Source of the DNA: an uncultured Candidatus Peribacteria bacterium | GTDB lineage: Bacteria > Patescibacteriota > Gracilibacteria > Peribacterales > Peribacteraceae | Assembly (NCBI GenBank): GCA_964575275.1 | Contig: CAZNPE010000005.1 | Location: 16,402 to 80,401 of the forward strand | DNA: 64,000 nucleotides | Reading direction: 5' to 3' | Part shown: positions 1,307 to 56,671 of the stretch, in pieces | How positions within the stretch are numbered: position 1 is the first letter of the stretch | How the letters are laid out: each line of letters opens with the position of its first letter | Notes under the pieces: model-generated | What the model was told of the DNA's origin: nothing | Databases searched by the model: none | Seen by the model: the letters and a program-made list of their open reading frames with translations, nothing else | Program-made: the position numbers and the translations under genes

Positions 1307-4300
1307 ATGTTTGACCCCGTCGACCCCAATCAATCACTCCCCGATTTAGAATTGGGAATCCTCAAGTACTGGCGCGAAGAAGATACGTTCAAGCGATCCC
1401 TGAAGCATCGTGAGAAAAACGAAGTCTTCAGCTTCTACGATGGACCACCATTTGCGACAGGTCTTCCACACTACGGTCACCTCCTCGCAGGAACGATCAA
1501 AGACGTCATCCCTCGCTACCAAACCATGCGCGGGAAATATGTTCGTCGTCGCTTCGGTTGGGACTGTCACGGACTGCCGGTAGAAAATGAAATCGAGAAG
1601 GAGAAGAAACTTTCCAGTAAGAAAGATATTGAGGCGCTCGGGATTGCCAACTTCAACGCGCTCTGTCGCGGCGCTGTGCAGCGCTACGCAAAAGAGTGGC
1701 GCACGACTGTCGAACGCATGGGTCGTTGGGTGGATATGGACCACGACTACCGCACGATGGATCCGGACTACATGGAAAGTATCTGGTGGGTGTTCAAGCA
1801 ACTCTACGATCGCAAGTTGATCTACGAAGGACACAAGCCGATGCACGTGTGTCCACGCTGTCAGACTCCGCTCTCGAACTTCGAAGTCACACAAGGCTAC
1901 AAAGATATTCAAGACTTCTCGATCACCGCGATGTTTGAGCTTACTGAGACGAGAGATGAGAGACATGAGACAAGAGAAGAGAAATCCAAACCCTCACGTC
2001 TCAAGTCTCACGTCTCAAGTCTGGCCAAAGGAAAAACGTATGCGCTTGCTTGGACAACGACTGGATGGACGCTGCCAGGCAACATGTTCCTCGCGGTTCA
2101 CCCGGATGTTGACTATGTGACGGTCGACGCCGATGGTGCGAAGTACATTGTTGCAAAAGACTTGGCCGAATCAGTCTTCAAAGGAAAAGAATTCAAGATT
2201 GTCGATGAGTGCAAAGGAAAGAAGCTTCTCGGCAAAACGTACAAGCCGCTCTTCCCCTACTACGAAGAGAAATATACGGAGAAAGCATTCCGCATTGTGG
2301 AAGGTGACTTCGTCACAACGACAGACGGTACCGGCATCGTGCACATCGCAACCGGTTATGGCGAAGACGACTTCATGGTTGGTCAGCGTGAGAAGGTTGG
2401 CGTCGTGCAGCACGTCGATATCGATGGAACTTTTAAGAAGGAGATCACCGACTTCGCTGGAAAATCTGCCAAGCCGAAAGATGATCACCAGAGCGGCGAC
2501 AAGATGATCGCCAAATGGTTGAAAGATAAAGGAAAGCTCTTCAAGGCCGAGAGCTTCATGCACACGTACCCACACTGTTGGCGTTGCGACTCGCCTCTCC
2601 TCAACTACGCCACAAGTTCGTGGTTCGTGGCGGTCGAAAAAATCAAAGACAAGATGGTCGCAGCCAATAAGAAAACAACGTGGGTGCCAGACCACCTGCG
2701 TGATGGTCGTTTCGGAAAATGGTTGGAAGGCGCTCGTGACTGGGCGATCTCTCGTAACCGTTTCTGGGGAACGCCACTGCCAATCTGGCGCAACACGATG
2801 ACAGGCGACATCGAAGTGATTGGTTCACGTGACGAACTCATGAAGAATTCGAAGCAACGCTTCACGAAGATTTACGTCGCGCGTCACGCCGAAAGCCAAG
2901 GCAACGTCGACCGCATCTATCAGGGCAAAGAGCCAGGAACTGATTTGACTGCTCGTGGCGCCAAGATGGCTGAAGATCTGGGACAGAAAGTGCTTGGTGG
3001 TTCTAAGGAACTTCCTGTCGTTGCTATCTACTGCTCCCCACTCCAACGCACGCGTCAGACAGCTGCGGCAATCGCAGCAGCAACAGGTGCACCAATCACC
3101 GTGGATCCACGATTGAAAGAAGTAGAATTCGGTGAGTACGAAGGAAAGCACATCGATTTCGATGACCTCACGTTTGTCCGTGAGCGTCGTGCGCACAAGC
3201 TGGAAACAGGACAGATTGAGAGTGTGTACCACTTCCAAGGAATGGAAACGTGGAACTCTACACAGCTACGCATGAGCGACTTCTTCAAAGATGTATTGGA
3301 GAAGCATAAAGGCCAGTCCATCGCGATCGTGACACACGCCGACCTCGTGATGAATGCGGTGCACTTCTTCACTGGTGAAGATCCACACAAAATTGTGCAT
3401 CAGCCGTACCCAGAACTCGCGTCACTCCGCACGTTCTACTGGGATCACGAAACGAAGTCCCAGATGGATCTTCATAAGGAAACTGTCGATGAGCTCGTGT
3501 GGAAAAATTCATCCAAGCACGCAGTAGAGCTCACGCTGGTGCGCCACGGTGAAACAGATTTCAATAAACAGGGCATCGTCCAGGGCTCCAACATCGACAT
3601 GGTGCTCAATAAAGTCGGCAAAGAGCAGGCGAAGAAGACAGGGCAAGAACTGAAGACAAAGAAATTTGATGTCATCGTGACATCTGACCTCAAGCGTGCA
3701 AAAGAAACAGCAAAGATCATCGCCAAAGAACTTGGCATGAAGATCGATGCCGAGAGCGAGCTCCTCCGCGAACGAAATACCGGCGACTGGAGTGGCAAGA
3801 GCGCCGATGACGTTCGTGCCGAAAACAAGCTCAAGGCCAAGTGGGGCATTGCATTCGCAAAAGCCACACCACCCAATGGCGAATCGTTCGATCAATTCGT
3901 TGCTCGTGCTCGTCGTGCTCACGACTGGCTCCTGAAAGAATATCCAGGCAAGAAAGTGCTCGTGGTTGCTCATGGCGGCTTCCTGAAGGCAATGCTCTAC
4001 ATCACGCAGCAGAAGACCTACATGGAAGCGACAGAATATGAGCCGAAGAATGCCGCAGCAGTGGAGATGACGATCGCGCCACAGATGCGCAGAATTGAAG
4101 AAGTGTTGGACTGTTGGTTTGAGTCTGGCTCCATGCCATATGCGCAGGAACACTATCCGTTCGAAGGTCAGGGTGCAGTGCCACCACACTTCCCTGCCGA
4201 CTTCATCGCCGAAGGATTAGACCAAACTCGCGGCTGGTTCTACACGCTCATGGTCTTGAGCTCCGCGCTCTACGACTGCCCTGCGTTCAAGCACTGTGTG

Positions 4301-5632
4301 GTGAACGGTACTGTTCTCGCCGAAGACGGAAAGAAAATGAGTAAGCGACTCAAGAACTACCCCGAGCCAACCGAGATCGTGAAGAAGTACGGCGCCGATG
4401 CTGTGCGCTTCGCACTCATGAGTTCGCCTGCCGTCCGCGCCGAAGACCTCCGCTTCTCCGAGAAATTTGTGTCCGAGTCTGTGCGCTCGGTACTCCTCCC
4501 GCTCTGGAATGCGTATCGCCTCTTTGTCACGTACGCCAACGCTGCCGATTGGAAGCCATCACTCGATTTTGCGCTGAAGAATGCCAAATCCCCTCACCTC
4601 TTGGATCGCTGGATCGTGTGTAAGACACAAGAACTCGTGAACAAAATGACGAAGGAATTGGAAGGCTACGATCTCTCCGCCACCTGCGCTGAGCTCGCTG
4701 CGTCCATCGATGACCTCACCAACTGGTACGTGCGCTTGAGCCGCCGCCGTCTCGCCGGAAAAGAAGAAGGTACGAACGACGCATTCGACACGCTCTACCG
4801 TGTCATCGTCACCAACTGTCAGCTCCTCGCACCATTCTGTCCGTTCATCACCGAGGCGATCTACATGAACTTAGTCGGCGAAGATCACGACAGTATCCAC
4901 TTCACCGAGTGGCCAAAGACATCCGAGCTCACTGCAGAGGACAAGAAAGTGCTCTCGCTCATGGATAACACGCGCACGGTCGTCACACTGGGCCTCTCAC
5001 TCCGCAGTGGCGCCAAGATCCGCGTCCGTCAGCCGCTTTCCACCGTTACCTTCGCACTCCCACCATCCGACACCGTCGGCGTCCTCACCGATCTTATCGA
5101 GGAGGAACTCAACGTGAAGAAGGTGAATAAGACGAGCGATGCTCACTCGCTGGCGAGTGCCATCGTGCAGGTGGACGCGCGCAAAGTCGGTCCGCGTTTG
5201 GGCAAGAAGGTGCAGGATGTCATCAAGGCTGGTAAGGCAGGTTCCTACGAAGAGAAAGACGGAAAGATCGTCATCTTGGGTGAGGAATTCTCTGCAGAGG
5301 AAGCCAAGATCGTGTATCAGAGCAAGGAAGGCCAAACAGTCGCCGCCGACCATGGCATCGTAGTGAGCCTTGATACAACAGTGACTGATGAACTCGTGCT
5401 GGAGGCCCAAGCCCGCGAACTGATCCACGCCATTCAACAGCTCCGCAAAGATGCAGGACTTGAGTTCACAGATACCATCACACTCTCGCTCTCTGGAGCA
5501 GAGAAGATTATGGAAGTGCACAGAGAATTGATTTTGGAGGAGACACGAGCGGTGCTTGGAGATGCAAGCGGCGACTCGCAGACTGTCGATCTTGGCGGAG
5601 CGGACGTTGGGATTCGATTCAAGAAAAACTAG
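1307..5632 (+). CDS. ileS: isoleucine--tRNA ligase, type 2 (archaeal/eukaryote-like), carrying about 400 extra residues
   Basis: Motifs seen: MFDPVDPNQSLPDLELGILKYWREEDTF, HIGH-type PHYGHLLAG (~1467), WAISRNRFWGTPLPIW, CWFESGSMPYAQEHYPF, DQTRGWFYTL, KMSKRLKNYPEP (~4334). Similarity begins at ATG 1307; the ORF-track start at 845 is an upstream GTG. The gene ends in tandem in-frame stops TAG TAG TAA. Confidence 0.9.
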   Translation: MFDPVDPNQSLPDLELGILKYWREEDTFKRSLKHREKNEVFSFYDGPPFATGLPHYGHLLAGTIKDVIPRYQTMRGKYVRRRFGWDCHGLPVENEIEKEKKLSSKKDIEALGIANFNALCRGAVQRYAKEWRTTVERMGRWVDMDHDYRTMDPDYMESIWWVFKQLYDRKLIYEGHKPMHVCPRCQTPLSNFEVTQGYKDIQDFSITAMFELTETRDERHETREEKSKPSRLKSHVSSLAKGKTYALAWTTTGWTLPGNMFLAVHPDVDYVTVDADGAKYIVAKDLAESVFKGKEFKIVDECKGKKLLGKTYKPLFPYYEEKYTEKAFRIVEGDFVTTTDGTGIVHIATGYGEDDFMVGQREKVGVVQHVDIDGTFKKEITDFAGKSAKPKDDHQSGDKMIAKWLKDKGKLFKAESFMHTYPHCWRCDSPLLNYATSSWFVAVEKIKDKMVAANKKTTWVPDHLRDGRFGKWLEGARDWAISRNRFWGTPLPIWRNTMTGDIEVIGSRDELMKNSKQRFTKIYVARHAESQGNVDRIYQGKEPGTDLTARGAKMAEDLGQKVLGGSKELPVVAIYCSPLQRTRQTAAAIAAATGAPITVDPRLKEVEFGEYEGKHIDFDDLTFVRERRAHKLETGQIESVYHFQGMETWNSTQLRMSDFFKDVLEKHKGQSIAIVTHADLVMNAVHFFTGEDPHKIVHQPYPELASLRTFYWDHETKSQMDLHKETVDELVWKNSSKHAVELTLVRHGETDFNKQGIVQGSNIDMVLNKVGKEQAKKTGQELKTKKFDVIVTSDLKRAKETAKIIAKELGMKIDAESELLRERNTGDWSGKSADDVRAENKLKAKWGIAFAKATPPNGESFDQFVARARRAHDWLLKEYPGKKVLVVAHGGFLKAMLYITQQKTYMEATEYEPKNAAAVEMTIAPQMRRIEEVLDCWFESGSMPYAQEHYPFEGQGAVPPHFPADFIAEGLDQTRGWFYTLMVLSSALYDCPAFKHCVVNGTVLAEDGKKMSKRLKNYPEPTEIVKKYGADAVRFALMSSPAVRAEDLRFSEKFVSESVRSVLLPLWNAYRLFVTYANAADWKPSLDFALKNAKSPHLLDRWIVCKTQELVNKMTKELEGYDLSATCAELAASIDDLTNWYVRLSRRRLAGKEEGTNDAFDTLYRVIVTNCQLLAPFCPFITEAIYMNLVGEDHDSIHFTEWPKTSELTAEDKKVLSLMDNTRTVVTLGLSLRSGAKIRVRQPLSTVTFALPPSDTVGVLTDLIEEELNVKKVNKTSDAHSLASAIVQVDARKVGPRLGKKVQDVIKAGKAGSYEEKDGKIVILGEEFSAEEAKIVYQSKEGQTVAADHGIVVSLDTTVTDELVLEAQARELIHAIQQLRKDAGLEFTDTITLSLSGAEKIMEVHRELILEETRAVLGDASGDSQTVDLGGADVGIRFKKN
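2858..3440 (+). other. histidine phosphatase (PGAM-like, branch 1) domain, insertion 1 inside ileS
   Basis: IYVARHAESQGN (RH catalytic pair), CSPLQRTRQTA, EVEFGEYEGK, IVTHADLV. It lies between the IleRS segments GSRDEL and DLHKETVDEL. Confidence 0.7.
3520..4075 (+). other. histidine phosphatase (PGAM-like) domain, insertion 2 inside ileS
   Basis: LTLVRHGETDFN, TSDLKRAKETA, ERNTGDWSGK, VVAHGGFL. It lies between DLHKETVDELVW and MRRIEEVLDCWFESG. Confidence 0.75.
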
Positions 5633-5761
5633 TAGTAAATTGAGAATTGATAATCCGACTTCGGCTTCGGCCTTTGCCGAGACGAGTTGAAAATGTAGAA
5701 TGAAAGGATCGAATATTGATTGCTTCGTAATTCTCAATTTTCCATTCTCAATTTTCAATTT

Positions 5762-6124
5762 ATGAAGCTCCTCCTCCGCATTGCCGCCAACTTCGCCATT
5801 GTGTACCTCCTGGACGTCTACTTTCCGCAGTACTTTGTGGTCTTCGGGGGAATTCCAGCGTTCATTATCTTGGCGCTTTTGCTGACGATCATGAACATGG
5901 CGCTGCGACCAATCCTCAACGCCATCGCGTTCCCCCTGCACTTCTTCGTGTCCATTCTGGCAACAATCCTCGTGAATGCAGCGTTTTTGTGGGTGACGTA
6001 TCGGGTGACATTGGCGATGGATCCTAACGTGATTGCCCTCACGATCGTGGGCGGTGTCGCAGGATGGTTTGTGGTCAGTACGATTTTGGGTGTGACGAAC
6101 TGGGTGTTGAAGAAGGTGTTGTGA
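5762..6124 (+). CDS. small multi-pass membrane protein, phage-holin-family-IV / YvlD (DUF360)-like
   Basis: MKLLLRIAANFAIVYLLD... with four hydrophobic helices. Length and pattern resemble the DUF360 family. ATG at 5762 is within ORF 5720-6124. Confidence 0.5.
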   Translation: MKLLLRIAANFAIVYLLDVYFPQYFVVFGGIPAFIILALLLTIMNMALRPILNAIAFPLHFFVSILATILVNAAFLWVTYRVTLAMDPNVIALTIVGGVAGWFVVSTILGVTNWVLKKVL

Positions 6125-6128
6125 GAAA

Positions 6129-8051
6129 TTAAATATTACTGAAGAATGAATCGGAAACCTCTGTAAGCATTTTATAGACGAAATCCAACGTTGGAGTTTC
6201 CTCGTAAATAAAATCCAAGATACCAAAACTCATTCTTTCAATTTTATAGTTTCCACCTTCAAAATTAAAAGTTCTCGGCGTCCACTCAATTGCATTGAAC
6301 TTTTCTGCCCTTTCTCCCCAAAGAACTTCGACTAAAGACCCTGTATTTTCTAGGCACGAAGTTATTACCATTTCGTATGAGGGTCCTAGCTGATCACCTC
6401 TATCATAGCTATCTTTAATATCACTAAACGTAAGAAATATTTTCTTATTCTTTAGCCATCCTGACAATCCAGGATTATTTTTTTCTACTATCCCTTTAAA
6501 GGTTTCGGGAAATTCTTTGAAAAGAATATCCAGATTTTTTCTTAATGCATCTGCAGAAAAAATCTCCCAAATCCAACCGCCTCTCGTCCCTAAACGTGAA
6601 AAATCTTTTAGAACAAAAGATCTATCGATGTGATGTATTTTTTGATTCTTCATAAATTCCAAGAATTCAATAAAGAGCCTGAAGGGGAGTTTAGAATTAT
6701 AAAGTGGCCAATTTGGCGGTGTTAAATTTGCAAAATTTTCTTTAATTTTTTGGGATAAATCTTTTGCAAGCTCTGTTGAACAATTCACAGTAAGAAGAAA
6801 ATCTGGGTCAATTTTTACTTGCTTGTCCCAAATTTCCTTTGTCATAAGCGATGGCAATGGACTTTTGCTATTTTTTTCGTGATTCATTCTTAATTCCACC
6901 CACCACTGCAAATGATGGTTGAAAGCATGGTCAATTTGCTTAATTGAATATTTGGATTGCCGTGGCTCTAGACCTAGTTGTATATGAAGTCTATCAATCA
7001 CTGCAAAAAGGTACTCGGATGCCAAGAAACTGCTGACGCCGTGTTGTAATTTTCTTTCCTCAAGAACTTTTGTAAATTGGTTCTTAACAATTTCTTCTGC
7101 GTATTTTTCCGCATTATTCTCAATTGGATTTTCTTGTAAATGGAGGGTAAAAAATGCAATTCTTCGGATACTACCTTTATCAAATTCTTCTACTTTTTTA
7201 ATAAGCACTTCATTCTCATCCTCTTTCACAGGAAACAATAAATAATGAAGCTCGGAAGCTGTGTACTTGGAATAGGCTAATCCAATTTTCCATGCGTCTA
7301 AATACAGTCTTTTTTTAACAATTGGAAACTCTCGATCCAGCAAACTATTAATTCTATCTAGAAAACGATGAATTTTTTTAATGACAGTTTTATCATGAGA
7401 TACTTTTACTTTGTTATTTATTAGAGTGGAGGGGGCTATCGTCAATTTCTTCTCGTGATTTTGCCATTTTTCTTTACCAAGTCTCGCAATCCTAAGAACG
7501 AACTCTTTAACTTCTTCTATAGCAATGGGCTTAAAAGGTTGCTGAGGGAAAAATTTGCTCCAAACTTGTTCCCCTAAAATTGCAAAAATTTTTCGAAACT
7601 CCAAGTTTGATGCATCCCAAATTTCTATATGAAAACTGAAATTGGTGTTGTTTCTAAAAAGTCGATCTCCTTTATCATTTAAAGGTCTTTCAGGTGCAAA
7701 AATAATCCATGTTTCTACTGTCTTGCATTGCTGTTGTAATTCAAGAGCTTTGGATGATAGCTCAGTGTCTTTAACTGCCTTAGTAGTAACACCCTCCTTC
7801 GCCTTAGATTCAAGCGCCCAAATGAATCTTTCTTCCTGCAGAGATTTAGCCAATTGCCCTGCCTGATTTGTTGCTATTGGAATTCTTATTTTAAACTCGA
7901 TTGGCTGAAAATCCGTGATATCTCCTACTCGCGAGGCAGATGGCCTAAAGGTGCATACTTCGAATCCTGCAGCAGAGAGAATCTTTGGAAAATACATCTT
8001 CAGTAAATTTTCCAAGTTATCGCCTCTTCTTAAAGTTTTTTTAATAGGCAT
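6129..8051 (-). CDS. hypothetical 640-aa protein encoded by a markedly AT-rich gene; possible N-terminal PD-(D/E)xK (Mrr-like) nuclease fold
   Basis: Uninterrupted 640-codon ORF. N-terminus: GDNLENLLKMYFPKILSAAGFEV ... GDITDF ... IWALESKAK ... ETWIIFAPE, a D...ExK-type spacing. No recognisable motifs in the remaining roughly 450 aa. Confidence 0.6.
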   Translation of the reverse strand: MPIKKTLRRGDNLENLLKMYFPKILSAAGFEVCTFRPSASRVGDITDFQPIEFKIRIPIATNQAGQLAKSLQEERFIWALESKAKEGVTTKAVKDTELSSKALELQQQCKTVETWIIFAPERPLNDKGDRLFRNNTNFSFHIEIWDASNLEFRKIFAILGEQVWSKFFPQQPFKPIAIEEVKEFVLRIARLGKEKWQNHEKKLTIAPSTLINNKVKVSHDKTVIKKIHRFLDRINSLLDREFPIVKKRLYLDAWKIGLAYSKYTASELHYLLFPVKEDENEVLIKKVEEFDKGSIRRIAFFTLHLQENPIENNAEKYAEEIVKNQFTKVLEERKLQHGVSSFLASEYLFAVIDRLHIQLGLEPRQSKYSIKQIDHAFNHHLQWWVELRMNHEKNSKSPLPSLMTKEIWDKQVKIDPDFLLTVNCSTELAKDLSQKIKENFANLTPPNWPLYNSKLPFRLFIEFLEFMKNQKIHHIDRSFVLKDFSRLGTRGGWIWEIFSADALRKNLDILFKEFPETFKGIVEKNNPGLSGWLKNKKIFLTFSDIKDSYDRGDQLGPSYEMVITSCLENTGSLVEVLWGERAEKFNAIEWTPRTFNFEGGNYKIERMSFGILDFIYEETPTLDFVYKMLTEVSDSFFSNI

Positions 8052-8134: not shown

Positions 8135-8884
8135 ATGAAGAAGATCCCCTCCTCCATCTTTTGGTTCATCGTTTCTGTCGCAGTTGTTGTGGCGGTTTTC
8201 ATCGCCAATCATCAGATCAAAGCGAATAACCAGAAGGCGAAAGATGATTTCGAACTCGCAAATAGGACATGGACAGGTTCGGTGGAACCACAAGTCACGT
8301 ACGTATCTCCAGAAGTTGAACTCGCGGAACGAATCAAGGTAGGAGCGCCAATCACGGATCGGAATGTGAAGATCGCAAAAGATTTTACGTACACGACAAA
8401 GCCAGCTGACTTCATCGAATATTGTGACAAAAGCTTAGGCTTCTGCTTCTCGTACCCCAAGCGCTGGGGAACATTCACCGTGAAGCGCGATAATGTTATT
8501 TGTGAACAAGAAGCATACATTGATGTCTTAGGCGAGTTTTCCAATGCGCAGGTCAGCGCAGATGTTGCTTTTGTCACGACTACACAAAAAGAAAAATGTG
8601 AAGTGCTCGGCAACGATTTTGGTATCAGCGATCCATTCCGTAGCCTCTCCGATGCGGATCAGATCTTGCAGGTTGGAAATACGAATGAAGAAGTCGGTCT
8701 CTGGCTGAAGGGCGAGAGCACGATGTTCTTCTACTATGCGTCGTATATGGCACTGACGGCTCCAACGAGTGATCCACTCTATGGCCGCATGAACTTCATT
8801 TTCCGCGATATGCAAGCGCCGGAAACAGCAAAGCAGGATATCGAGGATTTCGTCGCAATGGCACATACGTTCCGGTTACTGTAA
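8135..8884 (+). CDS. hypothetical membrane-anchored or secreted protein
   Basis: N-terminal hydrophobic helix MKKIPSSIFWFIVSVAVVVAVFIA; 249-aa ORF. Confidence 0.6.
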   Translation: MKKIPSSIFWFIVSVAVVVAVFIANHQIKANNQKAKDDFELANRTWTGSVEPQVTYVSPEVELAERIKVGAPITDRNVKIAKDFTYTTKPADFIEYCDKSLGFCFSYPKRWGTFTVKRDNVICEQEAYIDVLGEFSNAQVSADVAFVTTTQKEKCEVLGNDFGISDPFRSLSDADQILQVGNTNEEVGLWLKGESTMFFYYASYMALTAPTSDPLYGRMNFIFRDMQAPETAKQDIEDFVAMAHTFRLL

Positions 8885-8895
8885 TTTTTTGCACT

Positions 8896-9612
8896 ATGAA
8901 GAAACTCCTTCAGTTTGTTTCACTCGTACTTTTTGCTGGGTGCGCTCCAGGTCAGCAAATCGCCACTCCTGTTCCTGAAGAGGTTGTAGTGCATCAACTA
9001 TCCGCAACATCCGAGGTGCGCTCTGTTGATACTGATCTGAACGAATACCTAAATCATGCACTTGGCGTTTCCATCAAATTCCCAAAGCGAATCTTAGAAA
9101 ATCCGTATGGAGTGAGTGCTACAACGGTTCCCGTAAAAATTATTGAGAACGGAGAGGTGATTACATTCTCTCGTGGATACGTTGTGGATCCCATGGCAAA
9201 CGAGGATGAAGTAGTCAAAATCCAGCAAGACTTCACGGTGCGTCATCCCTACTACAAGCCTCAATACTTGGACGACCTTCGTTATCCGTACCAAATCTAT
9301 CTCGCAAAGGCGGAAACCTTCGATGATGTGAAAGCGTTTGTCGAACGCGTGTACGGCGAAGGATGTACAGTGATTGAAGAGGAGGCTGCTGGGCACATCG
9401 ATCGTCCCGGTTACAAAGGCATGGTTGTCGAGGCCGCGAACAAGAATTGTGAAAATCCATACCATCTTGGTGACTATGTTCAGTGGTACAGCCTGCAGAA
9501 ATTTGTGTCTGCAAAACAGCCAGGATGGACGGGGAACTTCAAGATGAGACACTTACCTCTCATCGACGAAGATCCGTATTTTTATTTTGATGCTCTACCG
9601 ATTGCTGAGTAG
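8896..9612 (+). CDS. putative lipoprotein
   Basis: Signal peptide with lipobox MKKLLQFVSLVLFAGC; 12 nt downstream of the previous gene. Confidence 0.65.
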   Translation: MKKLLQFVSLVLFAGCAPGQQIATPVPEEVVVHQLSATSEVRSVDTDLNEYLNHALGVSIKFPKRILENPYGVSATTVPVKIIENGEVITFSRGYVVDPMANEDEVVKIQQDFTVRHPYYKPQYLDDLRYPYQIYLAKAETFDDVKAFVERVYGEGCTVIEEEAAGHIDRPGYKGMVVEAANKNCENPYHLGDYVQWYSLQKFVSAKQPGWTGNFKMRHLPLIDEDPYFYFDALPIAE

Positions 9613-10003: not shown

Positions 10004-11474
10004 TCATTCGCCAATGTTAGTTGGCGTGAGATCAAAATCGATAGTGTACAGCTCTTGTCGTATCTGGAATTGAATGAATATTCGATACAATTTTTGTAAA
10101 TTCCTCGGAATATGAAATGTGACATGATCGCTGATGGGTGACGGATGCGTATGGATAAAATCCCCATCTTGCGAGATGAGAATAGCGTGACCCATTGTGC
10201 CTAGATATTGATCGATAAAAGGCGCTCTCATCTCATCGTCATCAATATGGAGTGTGAGAATGTTTCCATTGTTGTACGGCTCTTGCTCCAAAATTACAGT
10301 GTGCTGACCTGTGAATTTTCGCTGGCGCAGATCGGGCACAAAGCCGTATTTACCAACTTCCCCTGAGTACGTCCGAGTGAAACGATGTGTGTAATGTGAG
10401 ATCGCACTATCGACAAAGTCGACATAGAGCCAGTACGTACCCCCAGCAGGCGGTGCATATCCTATTCTCCACGTGCCATCATCCTCTCGTTCGGGATGGA
10501 GATGAGTAAAGTGCTGTAAGTCATCGCGCACGATGAAAAGGTGGAGCTCCTTCTCGTGACTGATACCAAAATCAGTGAAGACTACGTCGTCTTGCATGAT
10601 TCGAAATGCAATCTCATCACTCGTCGATCGATCTTCGATTGTAAATGGTGATGAATCATCACCCTGTGTCCATTGGTGCTCTTCCGCAAGTTCTTCTCGA
10701 TTTTCTACGGAGAGGGCAACTCCACGAGCACAGCCCTCTTCAGAAATACCATGCAAGGAATCGGGACTATGGTCATGCTCATGAGGATATCCAAGCAATG
10801 CTGCTTTTACCTCTGTAGGATCTTCGTCTATCGCTACTGCAAGGCGATGAACAATCCAGTCGACATAGTCCACACGCAGGTCTGGATGGATCTCTCGGAG
10901 TTGCTGAAGGTAGAAATACTGAACACGTCACCAGGTGAATACTTTCGCCCCATGCCTCCTCTTCTATCCGAGATGCAAAGGAGAGTGGGTGAACATTGTG
11001 ATGCGTGTATTCGTATACGCGCGGAGTGCGTGTATCTAGACTATGCTCAGACAAAATATAATCGAGAACTGTCGCATGTTGCCGCAGCCCGCGACCTGGA
11101 ACAGCTACGCCGACACCACCATTGACACTACTTCCAGCATCCGGAAACACCTGACTTTGGCCGGTACTACCACCTGTGCTGCCCTGCCCTCCACCAGTAC
11201 CTCCACCTGTATTTCCTTGGCCGCCTCCGGTTCCACCTCCTGTGTTTCCCTGGCCTCCAGTGCCCCCACCGGTGTTGCCCTGCCCTCCACCAGTACCTCC
11301 GCCGGTATTACCCTGACCGCTCGTTCCTCCTCCATTATTGCCCTGATCGGATTTCGCAATAATGTGCTTCATCGTCGATGAAAAGGCTATGCCTCGACTC
11401 TCATGAACAAGTGTTGTCACAAGCAAAGCAAAAACTGCTACGACACAAATGCCTATGAGAAACTTTCTGTGCAT
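10004..11474 (-). pseudogene. secreted Gly-rich protein apparently split by a +1 frameshift near 10928
   Basis: ORF 10779-11474 (TM helix, then GNTGGGTGG repeats) and ORF 10004-10873 overlap by 95 nt in different frames. The downstream frame is open back to a TGA at 10928-10930, so skipping one nucleotide there joins ...GESIHLVT to VQYFYLQQLREIHPDL... The C-terminal part contains HLFIVRDDLQHFTHLHP. Confidence 0.45.
11150..11335 (-). repeat. in-frame tandem repeats encoding (Q)GNTGGGTGG(G) units
   Basis: Protein reads GGGTSGQGNTGGGTGGGQGNTGGGTGGQGNTGGGTGGGQGNTGGGTGGGQGSTGGSTG. The DNA shows reiterated ccaccagtacctcc / ggtgttgccctg units. Confidence 0.6.
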
Positions 11475-12235: not shown

Positions 12236-12631
12236 GGGGATGACAGGCTTCGACAGCGTGAATCTGCGTTGCTCGTGTCTCGATCCGGGTTTGCTCTGGT
12301 ACCCGTTACCCACCGTTGCACCTCATAATTGCCAAAAGCAATTTCATGGCTCGTGTAGAAGCTATTGCTAACTCTGTTAGCTTTGGCGTCCCTGCACTTG
12401 CTTAAGGTCTGATTTTTCGGACCACGTCCTCCTTTTGATCCTCGCTGGATTGGAAAGACGTCATTAGCGAGGTTGGAACTCGACTGACGCGACGAGTTCC
12501 TGACTTTTGCGTCATCACTCCTACCCCCTCTCTGTTCTTCTCTCACGGAGTAGGAGAATCGAGAAGAACATGATCGTACTGACCTTCAGCGTACACGTTG
12601 GACCCGGGTTCAACTCCCGGCATCTCCACCA
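12236..12631 (+). ncRNA. ssrA: tmRNA (SsrA)
   Basis: 5' GGGGAUGACAGGCUUCGACAGCG. The 3' end has a T-arm CCGGG-UUCAACU-CCCGG followed by CAUCUCC-ACCA. The acceptor stem pairs 7 bp including a G3:U wobble (Ala identity). An internal tag frame ends ...ANSVSFGVPALA-TAA (stop at 12403-12405). Confidence 0.85.
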
Positions 12632-12815: not shown

Positions 12816-14072
12816 CTAAAAGCTACTGTGGATTGAGTTAAATATTGGAGTTAGGACATTTTTGTCTATCCATCGGATAACGGGTACACACACAGCGTCG
12901 CCAAAGCCAAAAAGGTTCTGATTCTTCTGCTTCACAAGAGGAAAATCATCTGCGCCCTGCAACCGCGCATACTCACGTGGCGACATCCATCTCATACGCA
13001 CATCCCCTTTGTCGATTGCAATGACAATTTGTCGTGCGCTTCCACCGCGTGGAGTACGAAGGCAGCCAGCCGTTCCATCAAAACGCGTTTCCGCATATGT
13101 TCTATCGTTTCTTTTGCGTCGATAGATAGTCCCAACATGCGTGCCTCGAGTATTGCACATCTCATCGACCTGTCTCTTATGGAGACTGCTCATCATCGCA
13201 TAGTGTTTTTTAACCGCCTTTGCGTCCCACCATTCTTGGTTAGCATCTAAGTCTATGACATCGACTAGGTTTTTACTCCGTTCCATCGGCTCTTCTAAAT
13301 CAATCGCCATCCAACCAGTCGGTAGCTCAATTGTCTGCATCAGTTGCATCAATTGATCTGGTCTCATACTTCTTGGTCGTCTATCAATAACATTGTTCCA
13401 AAGGTCAAAAATACTATCTGACGATGATCTTTTTACCGTAACAGTTGACTCAACACTTTCGTGTAATCCAACTACAAAAACCCTTTGTCTGCTTTGTGGA
13501 ACAAATTTCTTTGCATCCAGAACAAAACAATCAATCCAATAACCAAGTTCTGCCAACTTAGTCACAGCCGATGCAAAGTCTTTGCCTCCATGAGAAGTTA
13601 TGAATCCCGTAACATTCTCAAGCATGACCATTTTTGGACGTCGATCTCCCAACGCAGTAAGTACATCTATGAATCCAAAAAACGTCGATGAATGGTCTCC
13701 CGCGAGACCGCGTCCTTTACCGGCAAGAGAAAGATCAGTGCATGGAAATGATGCTGTAGCTAGGAACGGCTCATTTTTAATTTTTGAAAGAACTTCATCT
13801 GTGTTCCATATATCACCTAGATGGAAATCATTGCTGTTTTCAAAACGTGCTTTATACATCTCTAGCTTCTTCTCGTCGATATCATTCGCATATACGCATT
13901 CCCATCCAGAAGAATTCAGACCATCTCTGACCAATCCAATCCCTGCAAAGAACTCACAAAAATTCTTTTGATATATTTTTTTCTTGTGCCCTCTTTTTAA
14001 AATTTTATCTTGCACCTGCTGACCCTTTTCCATCAGTGCTGTTCCGCTGATGGCAATTGTTTGTGGATTCAT
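12816..14072 (-). CDS. DNA (cytosine-5)-methyltransferase
   Basis: Motif I FCEFFAGIGL, motif IV SFPCTDLS, motif VI MLENV, motif VIII QSRQRVF, motif X FGDAVCVPV. Confidence 0.9.
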   Translation of the reverse strand: MNPQTIAISGTALMEKGQQVQDKILKRGHKKKIYQKNFCEFFAGIGLVRDGLNSSGWECVYANDIDEKKLEMYKARFENSNDFHLGDIWNTDEVLSKIKNEPFLATASFPCTDLSLAGKGRGLAGDHSSTFFGFIDVLTALGDRRPKMVMLENVTGFITSHGGKDFASAVTKLAELGYWIDCFVLDAKKFVPQSRQRVFVVGLHESVESTVTVKRSSSDSIFDLWNNVIDRRPRSMRPDQLMQLMQTIELPTGWMAIDLEEPMERSKNLVDVIDLDANQEWWDAKAVKKHYAMMSSLHKRQVDEMCNTRGTHVGTIYRRKRNDRTYAETRFDGTAGCLRTPRGGSARQIVIAIDKGDVRMRWMSPREYARLQGADDFPLVKQKNQNLFGFGDAVCVPVIRWIDKNVLTPIFNSIHSSF

Positions 14073-14172: not shown

Positions 14173-14919
14173 ATGAGCAACAATGCGCTGGATACCGTCA
14201 AGTCACAAATCAAGTCGGCAAAAGATGAGCTGAGTGCCTACCATCCTTCGGATTCGAATTGGGCGAAAAGGGCTATAGTGAATGCAGAAAGACTCATCCC
14301 ATGGCTGATTGAAGTAAGTCCTCAATTAAAGGGCTACTGCGAGGACGTTTTGAACGCGCCAGCGCAGTTGCGTAGGATGTGGACGGACATTAAACCTCAC
14401 GTTGATCTTCCCAAGGAGCAAATTGAGGCTTTTGACAGACAATTGTCTTTCGATGATGTTCTAAGGGTTTCTATTACAGGCGAAGTTGTGAGCAGCGTGG
14501 TCTCCAAATTTTTGATGGATAATTTCCCCAAGGCAGCATTGAAGTCGAATGGTAGGAGTGATTATCCAGATTTATATTTGGGTGATGTCGATTATTCATT
14601 TCTGCCGATCTTTCAGCGTATTAAAAAGAAAGAAGATGAATATGGTGCGGCACTCAAGGGTGACAAACGTCCTGTGAGAGTTCCTGATGGACTTGAAATC
14701 AAAACTTGCAGAGGTCGAATCGCAGTAGATTGTCATCACCCTCATGCAGGTATGCACTTAGTACTGTTATTTGGAGAAACCGATCACTTATTTTCTGTAG
14801 ATGACATCCGCATCGCATTTCTATGCCAGTCTGATTATCGCGAATCCGAAAGAAACACTACCGCTACGACTGTTAAGTATTCATTTAATGGAGACCGTTT
14901 TGTGAGTCTGCTGACTTAA
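14173..14919 (+). CDS. hypothetical protein; candidate type II restriction endonuclease (PD-(D/E)xK-like motif)
   Basis: Divergent from the C5 methyltransferase. SDYPDLYLGD ... (about 37 aa) ... VPDGLEIKTCRG fits PD...ExK spacing. No other family motif recognised. Confidence 0.4.
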   Translation: MSNNALDTVKSQIKSAKDELSAYHPSDSNWAKRAIVNAERLIPWLIEVSPQLKGYCEDVLNAPAQLRRMWTDIKPHVDLPKEQIEAFDRQLSFDDVLRVSITGEVVSSVVSKFLMDNFPKAALKSNGRSDYPDLYLGDVDYSFLPIFQRIKKKEDEYGAALKGDKRPVRVPDGLEIKTCRGRIAVDCHHPHAGMHLVLLFGETDHLFSVDDIRIAFLCQSDYRESERNTTATTVKYSFNGDRFVSLLT

Positions 14920-14935
14920 TTCGATCTTTATTCAT

Positions 14936-15967
14936 ATGTCGGAAAATCAAACAAACCATCGTGCTGCATTCCTGACTTACAAAAACTATCTTGTGTCTTT
15001 TTCCTATTTTCTCAATCGTCTATATCCTGACTATTCCACCTTGGAAATACAGCTCAAGCATCTCCAAAGAGGAGAAGTGGCTGACGTAGATCGTGTGAAA
15101 AAACTCCTGTTCAATGCGTGGAATACAGAACTCTTATTGAATCTCCCGGCAAGTTTTAATCGTGATCTCCTGCGGCTTTCTAATCATTGGTCTCCTGTAC
15201 AGGCTTATTATGCTGTTTACCTTGCGCTTCGCGCATTGATTGTTGCCAAGATGCCACAAGCGCGCGGCGACCATGCTACGACTTTAAAAACTGTTGCAAT
15301 TAACTTAATCAGAGATCAGGACTTAATGCCTCATCCTCTCAACATACTCAGGGTCAAAAAAGGCTTTCAGCCTGAGCATGCCTGCGGAAGTGTGAATCCA
15401 TTGGAAAGTCCCTCTGCTCACGATGCCGAGAAACAGTTGGGCTCCTTCAAAATGTTTCTCGATACAACTTGGAATCGAGCGATTGAGGAAAGATGTGAGG
15501 ATTGGAAGAAGGTCAATGTGCTAAAAAATGGAAAACAACGAAGGAGACTTCCCAATGGGATGAAGACTGAAATAACCGAAAGGCAAAGACCCATTTCAGT
15601 TTTTGACTGCCTGTATCGCATCAGATTACGTTCAAATTATAAAGACGCTGACATTTTTCTTCTCGGCTCAAGAATGGATGAAGTTCAAGAGTATTTCACA
15701 AGTTTATGTAGTATCACGGATAAGTGTCTTTACTGTCTTGAGCACTATTTAGAACAAGCTCTTGGAAAACAAGAATACCAAGCAATGGTTGGCGCATTCG
15801 CAACAGCTGGCAACGCAATGTTACTGGGTAAAACTCCTTTCAATGTTCTACGCCGTCTTTCGGGAGATGTATCTGCATCAGTGGCTGTTTCCAGACAGAC
15901 CATAGCAGCAAAACATGCAAATATTATGCAAGTAGGTAGTTCGGAATTCACCTCAAAAGCTCTTTGA
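14936..15967 (+). CDS. hypothetical 343-aa protein, apparently co-transcribed with the candidate nuclease
   Basis: Starts 17 nt after the previous stop. Helical protein with HWSPVQAYYAVYLALRAL and YRIRLRSNYKDADIF. Any YaaC/HEPN-like resemblance is only an impression. Confidence 0.55.
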   Translation: MSENQTNHRAAFLTYKNYLVSFSYFLNRLYPDYSTLEIQLKHLQRGEVADVDRVKKLLFNAWNTELLLNLPASFNRDLLRLSNHWSPVQAYYAVYLALRALIVAKMPQARGDHATTLKTVAINLIRDQDLMPHPLNILRVKKGFQPEHACGSVNPLESPSAHDAEKQLGSFKMFLDTTWNRAIEERCEDWKKVNVLKNGKQRRRLPNGMKTEITERQRPISVFDCLYRIRLRSNYKDADIFLLGSRMDEVQEYFTSLCSITDKCLYCLEHYLEQALGKQEYQAMVGAFATAGNAMLLGKTPFNVLRRLSGDVSASVAVSRQTIAAKHANIMQVGSSEFTSKAL

Positions 15968-20921: not shown

Positions 20922-22271
20922 TTACTTCGTCTCGGTCTGTACTGGTGGATGGAAATTTGTCAGAAGATAGTTTCCATCGACGCCGATGTACTTGTGAATG
21001 ATGGAGCGCCAGACTGGCTTAGCATAGGTAGCAATAATAGGGCGAACGAGCTCGGCACCATTCTTCATGGTCACAGTGCGCACCCAACCAATTTGATGAT
21101 TGGAGAGTGGCTTCATTGCTGCAGGACGGTTCTTGCTACCAACGAAGAATGGACCCTCCATCTTCACGGTGCGGCCGTCATCGATACCGAAGACGTTCAC
21201 AACAACTTTTGGGTTTTCGAGGTGAGCCTGAATGAGGAGGTCTTCGCCAGTGTCATTCTTGAAACGCATGTCATGCACACCTGGGAACATGGTGGCATCC
21301 AAACCGATACCGTAGAACTCGTAGTGGTCAACGAACAAGCTGTGGTTGCGAAGCTGAACAATAGGTAGACCTGCGAGAAGAGCGGCACGGAACATCGTGG
21401 TTGCAGACTGGCAGATACCAGCACCGTACGTGAGCGCAGCACCACCACCGAAGAGTCCTTTATCCTCCATCCAACCCTTCTCTGGAGTGATAGGAGCATC
21501 CATGGCCTCAACGATAGAGAATGTCTCACCTGCTGGGAGAAGGATGTTATTGAGGTGAGTTTCGATGGCGAGGTGCACGTTATTCAAACGACCGACGGTA
21601 GAGCCGGAATAATCGGAAAGACCTGTGGATAGAAGTGTGTACGAACGCTGCGTGCCATCTGGCATGGTGCGGATGACTACTGGCTTCTTCCACTCAGCTT
21701 CGATCCAGAGGTGACTCTGGCCATCGTGCAGTGCTTGTGCAATCTGTTTGGCAAGCACCATAGGATCGATGTCGTATCCCTCGAGAGCAATGGTGTTTGT
21801 CGTTGCACGAATAATGAGCTTCTCCTGTGCAGACGAAGACATGGTTGCATTGCGAAGAATCGGGAGCGGTAGATGAGAGCCGCTCATCAGGTACGCAGCA
21901 ATATTCTCAGGGCTTACTTTGTTCGAGACCGCACGAAACATGTGCTCCGTTGGGACAGCCCACTCTGGGTGCTCCGCCAAACTGAAAATGGCTTTTGCCT
22001 CTGTGGAGTCCTTTCCACTGAGTGTGACAGTCACCTGACGCTCTAAAAGATCGTCTGGCTGCTGCTCTGTCTGCTCCGCCAATGCAACATCAGCTGGTGC
22101 ACTCTCGTGGAGAGCAACAGGTGTCGTCACACTAGAACGAAGACTGAAAAGCGGCATACTCACCGCATAGGTTCCGATGAACACGAATGCGATGGCAGCT
22201 AGCGCCAAAAGTGCCACGGATACAATGTGCGTAGTGTGTGTGGCGTTACGCTGAATATTTGACTGAGGCAT
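20922..22271 (-). CDS. VanW family protein (paralog 1)
   Basis: GGGAALTYGAGICQSATTMFRAALLAGLPIVQLRNHSLFVDHYE...GLDATMF...RFKNDTGEDLLIQ. N-terminal TM anchor. Confidence 0.75.
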   Translation of the reverse strand: MPQSNIQRNATHTTHIVSVALLALAAIAFVFIGTYAVSMPLFSLRSSVTTPVALHESAPADVALAEQTEQQPDDLLERQVTVTLSGKDSTEAKAIFSLAEHPEWAVPTEHMFRAVSNKVSPENIAAYLMSGSHLPLPILRNATMSSSAQEKLIIRATTNTIALEGYDIDPMVLAKQIAQALHDGQSHLWIEAEWKKPVVIRTMPDGTQRSYTLLSTGLSDYSGSTVGRLNNVHLAIETHLNNILLPAGETFSIVEAMDAPITPEKGWMEDKGLFGGGAALTYGAGICQSATTMFRAALLAGLPIVQLRNHSLFVDHYEFYGIGLDATMFPGVHDMRFKNDTGEDLLIQAHLENPKVVVNVFGIDDGRTVKMEGPFFVGSKNRPAAMKPLSNHQIGWVRTVTMKNGAELVRPIIATYAKPVWRSIIHKYIGVDGNYLLTNFHPPVQTETK

Positions 22272-25517: not shown

Positions 25518-27059
25518 CTACATCACGCGAGGGTCGACTGCTGGAGTCGCCTTCTCGAGAGGCATGGCAGATGGAATCTGCTCATCGAAGAGATCTTTTG
25601 CGAGAGGGACGATGACGTTATTCATGTAGAAGTATCCACCGTTACCACCGCGGATTTCCTTCACTGGGAAGACCAAGGATGGGACGAGGATTTCGGAGTT
25701 CTTGCCATTCTCGTAGCGGTAGTTCATCACGAGGGAGACTGTTGGGTCACCGAGGACAACGGTTGCCTTCTTGGATTCACCATTGCCATCTGGAGCAATG
25801 AGAGGCATTGGGCGTGCATCGATAGGGAACATGCCACCGCCGAGGTTGTCGATGTACTTCATGATGGCTGCAGCATCCGTGACACCGGTGTAGTCGGACT
25901 TCTTGTACGTGCGGTCAGCAATACCCCAGACGCTCATCACTCTGTTTTCCTTGATGTGTACTGTGATTGCGATACCAGTCTTGGCTCCAGACTGATCGTA
26001 TGTTGGCTTATCATCGATCATGAGTGGGAAGACAACCTGTAGAGATTCTGGGATGTAGTAGTCGGCCTTGTTTGGGGTGTTGTCGTAGTCGCGACGCCAC
26101 TGGTTATTGACCTCGGGAGTACCGTAGTTCGACAAATCGATACCGTGTTCCTTGGCAAAGTCCTGCGCAATCTTGATGACAGCATCATCCGATGGAATGT
26201 CACCGATTTTCACTCGCTGCTTCTGGAAACATGCATCAGTTGTGCACTGAGACTGTGGCCATTGGCTCCACATTGCATCGATATTCACCGTTGCCTCACG
26301 AAGGTTGACGTACAGCTGATACCCATACGGACGATCTTGTGTGAACGAGACTGAATCGACATTCATCCCCTGAAAAGAACTGATATCGAGAGTGCCCAAG
26401 TTCAATGCAGATTGGAGTGACGAAAGGGAGAGGTTTTTAGCCGAAGGAGTACGCATGTAGACGGCAACAGAATCCTTGAGATCGGCGATCTTGCCTTCGT
26501 ACACATAGTCGTACTCATAGAATGGATACGGAGCAATCATCTTGGCATCCATGCCCATACCACCGCCGCCCATGCCCATCATGGCAGGCGCGACAGCATT
26601 TGTTGGGCCACCGCCACCAGATTGGTCACGTATGACTGGTGGGGCAGTGGGTGCCTCGCCGTTCTGCTGTGCACCAAGTTCGCCAAAAGCGCCTTTTGAT
26701 GTCTCTTCGATGCGGTATCCGAAGAGATCGGTAGAGGAGCTCGACGTCCCCAGAGGAGGGAGACCTTTGTTCCATGCGATAAAGACGAGTGGGAGGACAA
26801 CGGCGGCAGTCACCGCACCACCGAAGGCGTAGAGTACTTTCTGCCAGACTGAGGAAGACATAGAAGGGGAAGAAGAAAGGGAAGTAGCACGATCTTGGAG
26901 TTGCAAACGGAGAGACTGCACGAAAGCAGCATTTGGTACTTGCGATGGATCGTGCGAGAGTAATTTTTCAATGAGTGGAATGAGTTCGCTCTCATGAGCC
27001 TGAAGATCTGGGTCGATCTCGTAGAGCTCTCGGAGAAACGTTTTCATAGATGGCTTCAT
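25518..27059 (-). CDS. anti-sigma-factor-like membrane protein with a large extracytoplasmic domain
   Basis: Start overlaps the sigma gene stop by 4 nt. Short cytoplasmic N-terminus, single TM (VLYAFGGAVTAAVVLPLVFIAW), then about 400 aa extracellular. Confidence 0.55.
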   Translation of the reverse strand: MKPSMKTFLRELYEIDPDLQAHESELIPLIEKLLSHDPSQVPNAAFVQSLRLQLQDRATSLSSSPSMSSSVWQKVLYAFGGAVTAAVVLPLVFIAWNKGLPPLGTSSSSTDLFGYRIEETSKGAFGELGAQQNGEAPTAPPVIRDQSGGGGPTNAVAPAMMGMGGGGMGMDAKMIAPYPFYEYDYVYEGKIADLKDSVAVYMRTPSAKNLSLSSLQSALNLGTLDISSFQGMNVDSVSFTQDRPYGYQLYVNLREATVNIDAMWSQWPQSQCTTDACFQKQRVKIGDIPSDDAVIKIAQDFAKEHGIDLSNYGTPEVNNQWRRDYDNTPNKADYYIPESLQVVFPLMIDDKPTYDQSGAKTGIAITVHIKENRVMSVWGIADRTYKKSDYTGVTDAAAIMKYIDNLGGGMFPIDARPMPLIAPDGNGESKKATVVLGDPTVSLVMNYRYENGKNSEILVPSLVFPVKEIRGGNGGYFYMNNVIVPLAKDLFDEQIPSAMPLEKATPAVDPRVM

Positions 27060-42664: not shown

Positions 42665-42711
42665 TCGTTCTTGCAGGAATGGCGGCATTTCCAGTACTCT
42701 CTGCACCACGC

Positions 42712-50466: not shown

Positions 50467-50468
50467 AC

Positions 50469-55184: not shown

Positions 55185-56671
<1,487 letters not shown>

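Follow-up and report, generated by a model that had tools for sequence, protein, structure and literature searches.

Two histidine phosphatase domains within the CP3 region of a type-2 isoleucyl-tRNA synthetase from a Candidatus Peribacteria bacterium

The ileS gene described here lies in a 64,000-nucleotide stretch of DNA from an uncultured, groundwater-type Candidatus Peribacteria bacterium (assembly GCA_964575275.1, contig CAZNPE010000005.1, positions 16,402 to 80,401 of the forward strand), referred to below as the window. It specifies an isoleucyl-tRNA synthetase (IleRS) that carries two histidine phosphatase (HP) domains in frame, one on either side of a short native element of the enzyme. 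This two-module IleRS is a conserved, lineage-wide trait under purifying selection as strong on the modules as on the synthetase core. We consider it fairly probable that the protein is bifunctional, with active phosphatases that have been kept on class Ia synthetases by selection, the substrate most likely being a phosphorylated nucleotide or a tRNA terminal phosphate. The gene and its two modules are as follows.

1307-5632, plus strand (end includes the stop codon): ileS, encoding an IleRS of the type-2 (eukaryote-like) kind, 1441 amino acids (aa) long, that contains two internal HP domains; assigned from TIGR00392, PDB matches and Foldseek.
2867-3451, plus strand: HP module 1, His_Phos_1, aa 521-715; catalytic residues R526, H527, R581, E605 and H677.
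3527-4081, plus strand: HP module 2, His_Phos_1, aa 741-925; catalytic residues R746, H747, R797, E822 and H889.

The translation of nucleotides 1307-5632 (plus strand) is uninterrupted over 1441 aa, in agreement with the original prediction, made from the sequence alone, of a continuous frame of about that length. The start was placed at ATG 1307, homologues beginning MFDPVDP; the mechanical open reading frame (ORF) reaches further upstream, to GTG 845. A Pfam scan of the product returned tRNA-synt_1 in two stretches (E=6.8e-135), two His_Phos_1 domains (joint E=1.4e-83), Anticodon_1 and DUF5915. Scanned alone, module 1 (nt 2858-3460) scored 125 bits (E=3.8e-36) and module 2 (nt 3500-4090) 163 bits (E=7.9e-48) against a His_Phos_1 gathering score of 21.7. 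Both hold the branch-1 catalytic core, made up of an RHG-type Arg with the nucleophile His, a second Arg, an acid Glu and a second His, as had been proposed for the two modules of about 190 aa, and all of the motifs quoted for them lie where they were placed. Module 1 has in addition a strongly conserved cap segment of its own, RRAHK...ES[IV]YHF.GMETW.

Both modules possess an alpha/beta phosphoglycerate mutase (PGM)-like fold (Foldseek probability 1.00; TMt 0.74-0.79 to PhoE, PspA and CobC), and the nearest folds are short phosphatases, namely PhoE, PspA, riboflavin HFP, TIGAR, GpgP, CobC and Rv3214; for module 2 they are PhoE (1h2e), PspA (4ij6), HFP (9mmh) and CobC (6e4b). The modules had been called mutase-like, which stands as far as membership of the branch-1 HP superfamily goes and fails for the true phosphoglycerate mutase (dPGM), the curated cut-offs of which are not reached. 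Against the TIGR01258/PRK gpmA models module 2 scored 57.7 bits (cut-off 81.7), over the first ~100 positions only, and module 1 was unmatched; against the archaeal model NF038349 the modules scored 84.6 and 74.5 bits (cut-off 225). The modules are also shorter than dPGM (~190 versus ~230-250 aa), and dPGM structures give a TMt of only 0.63-0.68. Alpha-ribazole phosphatase CobC (TIGR03162) was rejected at 82.5 and 128.1 bits for the single modules (cut-off 162.9), the whole-protein score of 199.9 exceeding the cut-off only by summing two domains. Phosphoserine phosphatase PspA (NF045917) was rejected at 79.3 and 81.0 bits (cut-off 350), its likeness being structural only (4ij6), and for SixA the per-module score also fell below the curated cut-off. 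Because the phospho-histidine machinery is complete, the fold confident and the constraint strong, the modules are most likely active phosphomonoesterases of the short PhoE/PspA/CobC-like kind and not true phosphoglycerate mutases, as judged from sequence and modelled structure.

Two other origins for the insert were considered and rejected. For an intein or other self-excising insertion, a Hint or intein Pfam match is absent throughout the protein, and purifying selection acts on the inserts, each of which is a complete HP enzyme. For a recent tandem duplication, modules 1 and 2 share just 31 % identity over 97 aa. A module hidden Markov model run on all six frames found no further HP copies in the window.

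The position of the modules was defined by deletion in silico. Removal of aa 522-715 and 742-922 left a 265-residue stretch that aligned in one colinear block, with gaps of just 5-6 residues, to the IleRS of human (9w01), Candida (6ldk), yeast (7d5c) and Thermus (1ile). In this alignment DLHKETVDEL pairs with DLHRESVDHL of the human and DLHRDVIDKL of the yeast enzyme. The colinearity after deletion therefore indicates two separate, clean insertions around a native IleRS element, as the original prediction had it, and the IleRS motifs are intact on either side, which makes this an internal domain insertion rather than a terminal fusion. In yeast IleRS, CP3 (one of the connective polypeptides, CP) comprises residues 459-526, and the CP2-3 linker, 453-ARDWNVSRNRYWG-465, helps to form the pocket of reveromycin A, which occupies the tRNAIle binding site, according to the structural report (PMC7955072). 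By alignment numbering both insertion points are inside the CP3 subdomain of the Rossmann fold, which comes right after the CP2-3 linker. The prediction had put the modules in the catalytic core; they do lie within the catalytic half, and their host is the CP3 connective-polypeptide subdomain and not the core beta-sheet.

An AlphaFold2 (AF2) model that covered aa 1-1200 and was based on 73 sequences had a mean per-residue confidence (pLDDT) of 86.5 and a global confidence (pTM) of 0.83, with both modules above 90 and disorder confined to aa 217-241 and the KMSKS loop. In Foldseek searches the model retained the IleRS scaffold (target-relative TM 0.86-0.87 versus 6ldk and 1ile), so that the predicted structure combines an IleRS scaffold with two confident HP folds. 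When the insert was modelled alone the two HP folds were again confident, the pTM fell to 0.51 and the DLH element was disordered; the element thus seems, on the modelling, to belong structurally to the IleRS. Docking of the two modules on each other was not predicted in the insert-alone model, and an intramolecular pseudo-dimer is unsupported on the pTM values (0.51 alone versus 0.83 in the IleRS context), a judgement made without coordinates.

The remainder of the protein is a complete synthetase, with the following parts.

1469-1480, plus strand: HYGH, the class I HIGH signature, aa 55-58; kept in 119 of 120 homologues, the exception being N-terminally truncated.
1922-2041, plus strand: site 0, a low-complexity 40-aa insertion predicted to be disordered, aa 206-245, which separates the Rossmann N-half/CP core from CP1.
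2042-2626, plus strand: CP1 editing domain, aa 246-440, with intact WTTTGWTLPGN and GTGIVHIATGYGEDD motifs; matches the isolated editing-domain structures 1wk8 and 1udz.
2627-2866, plus strand: CP2, the CP2-3 linker (WAISRNRFWGTPLPIW) and CP3 from its N-terminal end to ...RFTK.
3452-3526, plus strand: native IleRS CP3 element, aa 716-740, holding DLHKETVDEL (nt 3467-3496); from alignment to human and yeast.
4082-4591, plus strand: second half of the Rossmann fold and SC-fold, with KMSKR (nt 4334-4348, aa 1010-1014).
4604-5044, plus strand: anticodon-binding domain, Pfam Anticodon_1, aa 1100-1246.
5090-5623, plus strand: C-terminal domain, aa 1262-1439, Pfam DUF5915; nearly every full-length homologue carries the same annotation.

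The NCBIfam model TIGR00392 (ileS) matched at 867.8 bits (cut-off 621.4), in two stretches owing to the insert. The best PDB sequence matches are eukaryote-type/type-2 IleRS (9w01, 8wnd, 7d5c, 8c8v, 6ldk and 1ile), and the PDB alignments stop at query residue ~520 and restart at ~926. Scores ran from 810 to 665 bits against 9w01, 8wnd, 8c8v and 1ile; the type-1 enzymes 8c9e, 1ffy and 8wnf gave 226-322 bits. By sequence, the window IleRS is nearer to the eukaryote/type-2 than to the type-1 bacterial IleRS, and its C-terminal region is type-2-like. In an alignment of 120 homologues the HYGH and KMSKR signatures are kept in 119-120 sequences, and WAISR..WGTPLP and DCWFESG are conserved along with HYGH and KMSK. 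The CP1 residues W249, T250-252, W254, G341, G343 and H346 are invariant, the CP1 motifs WTTTGWT and GTGIVH...GEDD invariant or nearly so, and D721, L722, H723 and D728 of the native CP3 element invariant. The site 0 loop is charged (sequence TETRDERHETREEKSKPSRLKSHVSSLAKGK...), has a pLDDT below 50 at aa 217-241 in the AF2 model and is gapped in 63 % of homologues. In relatives approximately this position holds a GNAT (P0014), a Nudix (P0491) or a DUF559 domain (P0486), and the loop may be the remnant or landing pad of another insertion site. A second IleRS was not found within the 64-kb window.

The gene is not an accident of one assembly. A search of 5.8 billion proteins gave at least 120 protein clusters from independent assemblies with the same layout (55-100 % identity), all annotated PF00133 and PF00300. 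Those that are named belong to Candidatus Peribacteraceae, Peribacteria, Peregrinibacteria or Patescibacteria; some carry the JGI label 'isoleucyl-tRNA synthetase/bisphosphoglycerate-dependent phosphoglycerate mutase', and the NCBI name for such proteins is 'class I tRNA ligase family protein'. At least 10 GTDB species representatives (Peribacteria, Peribacterales, Peribacter and Peregrinibacteria) hold the two-module gene. A scan of genome contigs kept 80 loci, mostly free-standing HP genes and chiefly cyanobacterial double-HP genes, so its Peribacteria/Peregrinibacteria count is a lower bound. The gene is likewise continuous in a JGI metagenome (L081), where the copy is 99.8 % identical, and in an unrelated SRA run (L082), where aa identity is 85 %, which answers the concern about a mis-join that had accompanied the original prediction.

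The residues of the active sites are essentially invariant. In module 1, R526, H527, R581, E605 and H677 are present in 120/120 homologues; in module 2, R746, H747, R797 and E822 are present in 120/120 and H889 in 119/120. Across the wider set of IleRS relatives described below the catalytic pentad is kept in at least 140 of 141 site-1, at least 156 of 157 site-2 and all 61 site-4 modules. The ratio of nonsynonymous to synonymous substitution rates (dN/dS), calculated against the L082 gene, came to 0.098 in the core and to 0.075 and 0.042 in modules 1 and 2, values that are approximate as dS was ~1.2-1.6. The GC content is even across the insert (0.50-0.54), and this lack of an anomaly, together with the grouping of modules by site with deep divergence, led to the rejection of a recent horizontal insertion. 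Independent copies, a continuous frame, even GC, low dN/dS (0.04-0.08 for the modules) and invariant catalytic residues likewise exclude the view that the insert is an artefact or a product of decay, whether chimeric assembly, pseudogene or dead structural spacer; we give that explanation practically no weight.

HP modules were also found at other places and in another synthetase. When 1.84 billion representative proteins were scanned with the insert only, 36,383 matches were obtained at E ≤ 0.001, just 16 of them below 1e-30; among the best 150 of the 36,383, every protein of more than 600 aa is a class Ia synthetase, either IleRS or valyl-tRNA synthetase (ValRS). The arrangements include the following.

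P0128: IleRS with module 1 only.
P0171: IleRS with module 2 only.
P0130 and P0134: IleRS with a site 1 module and one at the start of the anticodon-binding domain.
P0133: IleRS with modules at sites 2, 3 and 4.
P0127: ValRS with four modules.

Sorted by anchor motifs, 239 IleRS relatives, which were retrieved with HP-bearing queries and are thus not a census, hold HP modules at sites 1+2 in 121 cases; 43 have them at site 4, 23 at site 2, 14 at site 1 and 7 at site 3, 7 have none and the rest show various combinations. Related IleRS thus carry one to three modules at four or more distinct sites, in CP3, after CP3 and at the start of the anticodon-binding domain. In three IleRS of the Peribacteraceae type (P0046, P0081 and P0091) the third module is a tandem copy of module 2 that retains all catalytic motifs. 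The nearest neighbours of a module show 60-77 % identity within a site versus 30-38 % between sites, the latter being no closer than to free-standing HP proteins. Since the modules group by site, their sequences point to several old, separately diverged module lineages.

Among 120 ValRS sampled from Candidatus Gracilibacteria/Peregrinibacteria, 71 bear HP modules (one in 58, two in 11, three in 1, four in 1) and 49 have none. In these ValRS (P0127 and the P0281-P0398 set) the modules mostly lie between WCISRQIWWGH.IPVWY and LRQDEDTLDTWFSSALWP, a position homologous to the IleRS CP3, and some sit after PQWFI.VNKEF in the CP2 region. A ValRS of Candidatus Sungiibacteriota (L063:4672-7479, plus strand) also has one HP module at the CP3-homologous position.

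Other domains occupy similar places in IleRS relatives. In the Gracilibacteria-type IleRS P0450 a HAD-superfamily phosphatase (aa 566-760) sits at about the CP3 position and HP is absent. At about the same position P0457 has a serine hydrolase. P0491 has a Nudix domain at site 0, and P0486 a DUF559 domain and an AAA_33/Zeta_toxin-like P-loop domain. P-loop domains of the AAA_33/AAA_18/Zeta_toxin-like kind are also inserted in Gracilibacteria-type IleRS, GNAT domains occur inside P0014 and P0125, and relatives with other in-frame insertions include P0414 and P0437, a set in which a GNAT and a MuF_C-like segment are found. Members of the Nudix, P-loop kinase-like and GNAT families for the most part have nucleotides, RNA ends, or acyl or aminoacyl groups as their targets.

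Free-standing tandem double-HP proteins of ~390-400 aa are widespread in cyanobacteria (L011-L059, L073, L075 and L078) and align across both IleRS modules at 25-31 % identity; two-HP polypeptides therefore exist independently of synthetases.

The reading that we favour is that of a bifunctional synthetase. The protein would be a working type-2 IleRS of a Peribacteria-like bacterium (Peregrinibacteria; candidate phyla radiation (CPR)/Patescibacteria) with two HP domains, probably acquired anciently and of separate ancestry, set in the CP3 hairpin on either side of the native DLH(K/R)ExVD. Retaining what appear to be all of its catalytic, editing and anticodon-binding parts, it is predicted to charge tRNA-Ile normally, and each HP module would hydrolyse a phosphomonoester by means of the RHG nucleophile His, the two Arg, the Glu acid and the second His. 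Since each module is most likely an active phosphomonoesterase, the polypeptide would have two functions, and we infer both catalytic activity of the modules and a functional tie between this activity and the synthetase. Our leading guess for this tie is hydrolysis of a phosphorylated nucleotide or tRNA terminal phosphate present at the enzyme; the alternative would be a metabolic step merely housed on it. Coupling is favoured because HP domains have been captured repeatedly by IleRS and ValRS, because a non-homologous HAD phosphatase is found at about the same site, because the companion domains in relatives are nucleotide- or RNA-directed, and because the linker lining the tRNA-site pocket borders on CP3.

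Several observations weigh against this reading. Neither module reaches the cut-off of any curated, functionally defined HP family, and the ValRS CP3 modules are less conserved, the acid Glu being present in 51/73 and the second His in 64/73. HP domains are dispensable for the synthetase as such, being absent from 7/239 IleRS and 49/120 ValRS, a Peribacteria ValRS among them. The sites are spread over CP3, the region after it and the beginning of the anticodon-binding domain, which speaks against an exact geometric coupling to the active site, and since the same loops host DUF559 nuclease-like, MuF_C-like and serine hydrolase domains the scaffold may simply be permissive.

The main rival holds that the modules are ordinary metabolic phosphatases, for example a missing phosphoserine, sugar-phosphate or cofactor phosphatase, with a chemistry unrelated to aminoacylation. 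They would be hosted ('Rosetta-stone' or hitch-hiking) by a protein that is essential and constitutively expressed and has surface loops permissive for insertion. The variety of unrelated domains in these loops (GNAT, DUF559, MuF_C, Ser_hydrolase, HAD, Nudix and P-loop), the spread of sites over the protein and the existence of lineage members without any HP domain are all consistent with it, as are the closest folds, which are those of generic pathway phosphatases (PhoE, PspA, riboflavin HFP, GpgP and CobC). The sparse metabolism of small-genome CPR bacteria, as portrayed in the SR1 genome paper (PMC3812714), makes such gap-filling plausible. We nevertheless regard hosting as possible rather than likely, as the capture of HP domains recurs specifically in IleRS and ValRS, which make up all of the proteins above 600 aa among the best 150 of the 36,383 matches; as the modules form several separately diverged lineages and a non-homologous HAD phosphatase lies at about the same site; and as up to four copies in one ValRS are hard to square with a single metabolic step.

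Another proposal is that the modules and, in relatives, the GNAT, Nudix and kinase-like domains protect or repair the substrates of the synthetase and so keep them usable. They might free toxin-damaged tRNA acceptor ends of a 3'-phosphate or pyrophosphate or heal them in some other way, or they might inactivate, at their target, phosphorylated mimics of the aminoacyl-adenylate that act as inhibitors. The domain repertoire (phosphatase, AAA_33/Zeta_toxin-like kinase, Nudix and GNAT) recalls RNA end-healing and toxin/antidote chemistry, and the proximity of CP3 to the linker of the tRNA-site pocket would suit such a role. T4 Pnkp combines a kinase with a HAD phosphatase, toxSAS pyrophosphorylate the CCA end of tRNA, and GNAT toxins and MccE carry out related chemistry. 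The proposal would thus draw wholly on analogy. We know of no branch-1 HP that acts on RNA ends, a toxin partner was not seen beside ileS in the window, L081 or L082, and the acceptor end is presumably distant from site 4, which lies at the anticodon-binding domain; a protective role is accordingly judged improbable. In its most general form, which we term 'charge-and-repair' and consider a long shot, the phosphatases on the IleRS and ValRS of Peregrinibacteria, Gracilibacteria, SR1 and some other CPR bacteria would work in cis, their targets being the tRNA acceptor end or adenylate-type molecules at the active site. They may strip a toxin-installed 3'-phosphate or pyrophosphate, heal nuclease damage or destroy phosphorylated inhibitor mimics, and the Nudix, P-loop kinase and GNAT domains of relatives may do likewise.

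The modules might instead serve as regulatory sensors, binding, or being His-phosphorylated by, a glycolytic or nucleotide phospho-metabolite and, through CP3, tuning the CCA pocket or the KMSKS loop, which would couple tRNA charging to the energy state. HP domains do pass through a phospho-His intermediate, some of their relatives are regulators (TIGAR, which is among the structural neighbours, and also PFKFB and Sts), and the location adjoins the CP2-3 linker. That the acid Glu and the second His are fully conserved suits turnover over mere binding, and many copies and sites are unexpected of one allosteric switch, so that we hold a sensor to be very improbable. The bifunctional synthetase with catalytically active modules remains the preferred reading.

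Synthetases are among the most conserved enzymes, and a 400-residue pair of apparently active phosphatases within the catalytic half of an otherwise intact IleRS is unusual, all the more as selection holds it no less firmly than the core. The trait turns up at several sites and in ValRS, is seen in more than one CPR lineage and once involves a non-homologous phosphatase; this suggests that phosphate hydrolysis and class Ia aminoacylation have an unrecognised functional link in bacteria that have minimal genomes and are probably host-dependent. If this link is true, it would add a new accessory activity to the repertoire of aminoacyl-tRNA synthetases and offer a handle on CPR physiology; should 'charge-and-repair' be true, a new layer of translational self-defence would be built into the synthetase. 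If the link is untrue, the family would still be a natural catalogue of the whole-domain insertion sites that a class Ia synthetase tolerates, useful for protein engineering.

Directly after ileS, L081 and L082 have a small gene of the Phage_holin_4_2 family; its counterpart by position in the window is an ORF of 134 aa (5720-6124). In L082 (6039-7257, plus strand) a helix-turn-helix protein followed by a reverse transcriptase (RVT_1) lies downstream of the ileS orthologue; these are absent downstream in the window. Many neighbouring ORFs (6129-8051, 8135-8884, 8896-9612, 10004-10873 and 14173-15967) gave no Pfam match. Elsewhere in the window the following were noted.

12236-12631, plus strand: transfer-messenger RNA gene, 396 nt, predicted tag peptide AIANSVSFGVPALA.
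12816-14072, minus strand: C-5 cytosine DNA methylase.
20922-22271 and 30761-32065, minus strand: two VanW-like proteins, between which lie a sigma-70/extracytoplasmic function-type factor (27056-27715) and a histidine kinase (29312-30751).
32239-39816, minus strand: giant ORF of 2525 aa.
42679-44553, plus strand: short alanyl-tRNA synthetase (AlaRS) of 624 aa with tRNA-synt_2c and tRNA_SAD, no further C-terminal domain being detected.
49558-52010 and 55190-56662, minus strand: F1 ATP synthase, the gamma and alpha genes adjacent and a beta-like gene ~3 kb off on the upstream side, not after gamma, an unusual order.

Fragmented AlaRS and ValRS copies are described in SR1 (Kantor et al. 2013, PMC3812714), and the passage on synthetases in that paper, which deals with a complete SR1 genome, lists extra ValRS and AlaRS copies and makes no mention of a second IleRS.

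It is in the same paper (mBio, PMC3812714) that a precedent exists. The original prediction knew of no aminoacyl-tRNA synthetase with embedded PGAM-like domains, a claim that does not survive, as Kantor et al. noted in SR1/ACD80 an 'unusual isoleucine-tRNA synthetase' interrupted in frame by two 'phosphoglycerate mutase' domains. The mention takes a single sentence, and mapping, conservation analysis and function are absent from that passage. A search of the literature on HP domains within IleRS or ValRS, including the Peribacteria genome paper and the AARS Online paper, gave nothing beyond it. The architecture was thus noticed in 2013 in a sister lineage and is otherwise essentially unstudied, and the window IleRS is not categorically new. 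As described by Kantor et al. (PMC3812714), the SR1/ACD80 enzyme is like that of the window in coming from a related CPR lineage and in holding two His_Phos_1 domains in frame; it also bears a Nudix domain, whereas the window IleRS has just the 40-aa disordered stub at the corresponding site 0. The Gracilibacteria-type relatives that were sampled carry HP mostly at sites 4, 2 and 3, in contrast to the 1+2 pair of the window.

Among synthetases with an accessory catalytic domain, the MetRS-aminotransferase of M. penetrans (PMC7694997) has this domain at its N-terminus, where it supplies the amino acid substrate; the window IleRS differs in that its phosphatases are internal and an obvious link to Ile/Val synthesis is absent. 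NCBIfam holds a curated model for GNAT-containing IleRS (NF040702, 'ileS_w_GNAT'), and no NCBIfam model that recognises an HP-containing IleRS was found. Mycobacterial MutT1 (NF052459) joins Nudix and HP on one polypeptide, as do the SR1-type IleRS and P0491, but the match to this model is weak (24 bits, cut-off 475), MutT1 has no synthetase and the window IleRS no Nudix. With the short phosphatases PhoE (1h2e/1ebb), PspA (4ij5/4ij6), CobC (6e4b/6nru), GpgP Rv2419c (4pz9) and riboflavin HFP (9mmh), which rank highest among their neighbours in structure and in sequence, the modules share the fold, a length of ~190-200 aa and the catalytic pentad, at just 19-28 % identity, and the known enzymes are free-standing while the modules are embedded. 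With the type-2 IleRS of P. megaterium (IleRS2, 8c8v), S. cerevisiae (7d5c/8wnd), C. albicans (6ldk) and T. thermophilus (1ile) the window IleRS shares the scaffold, HYGH, KMSKS, CP1 and Anticodon_1. Unlike these canonical enzymes it has an extra 40-aa loop before CP1, and the CP3 stretch that spans ~19 residues in them extends over ~405 in the window IleRS, where it accommodates the two HP domains.

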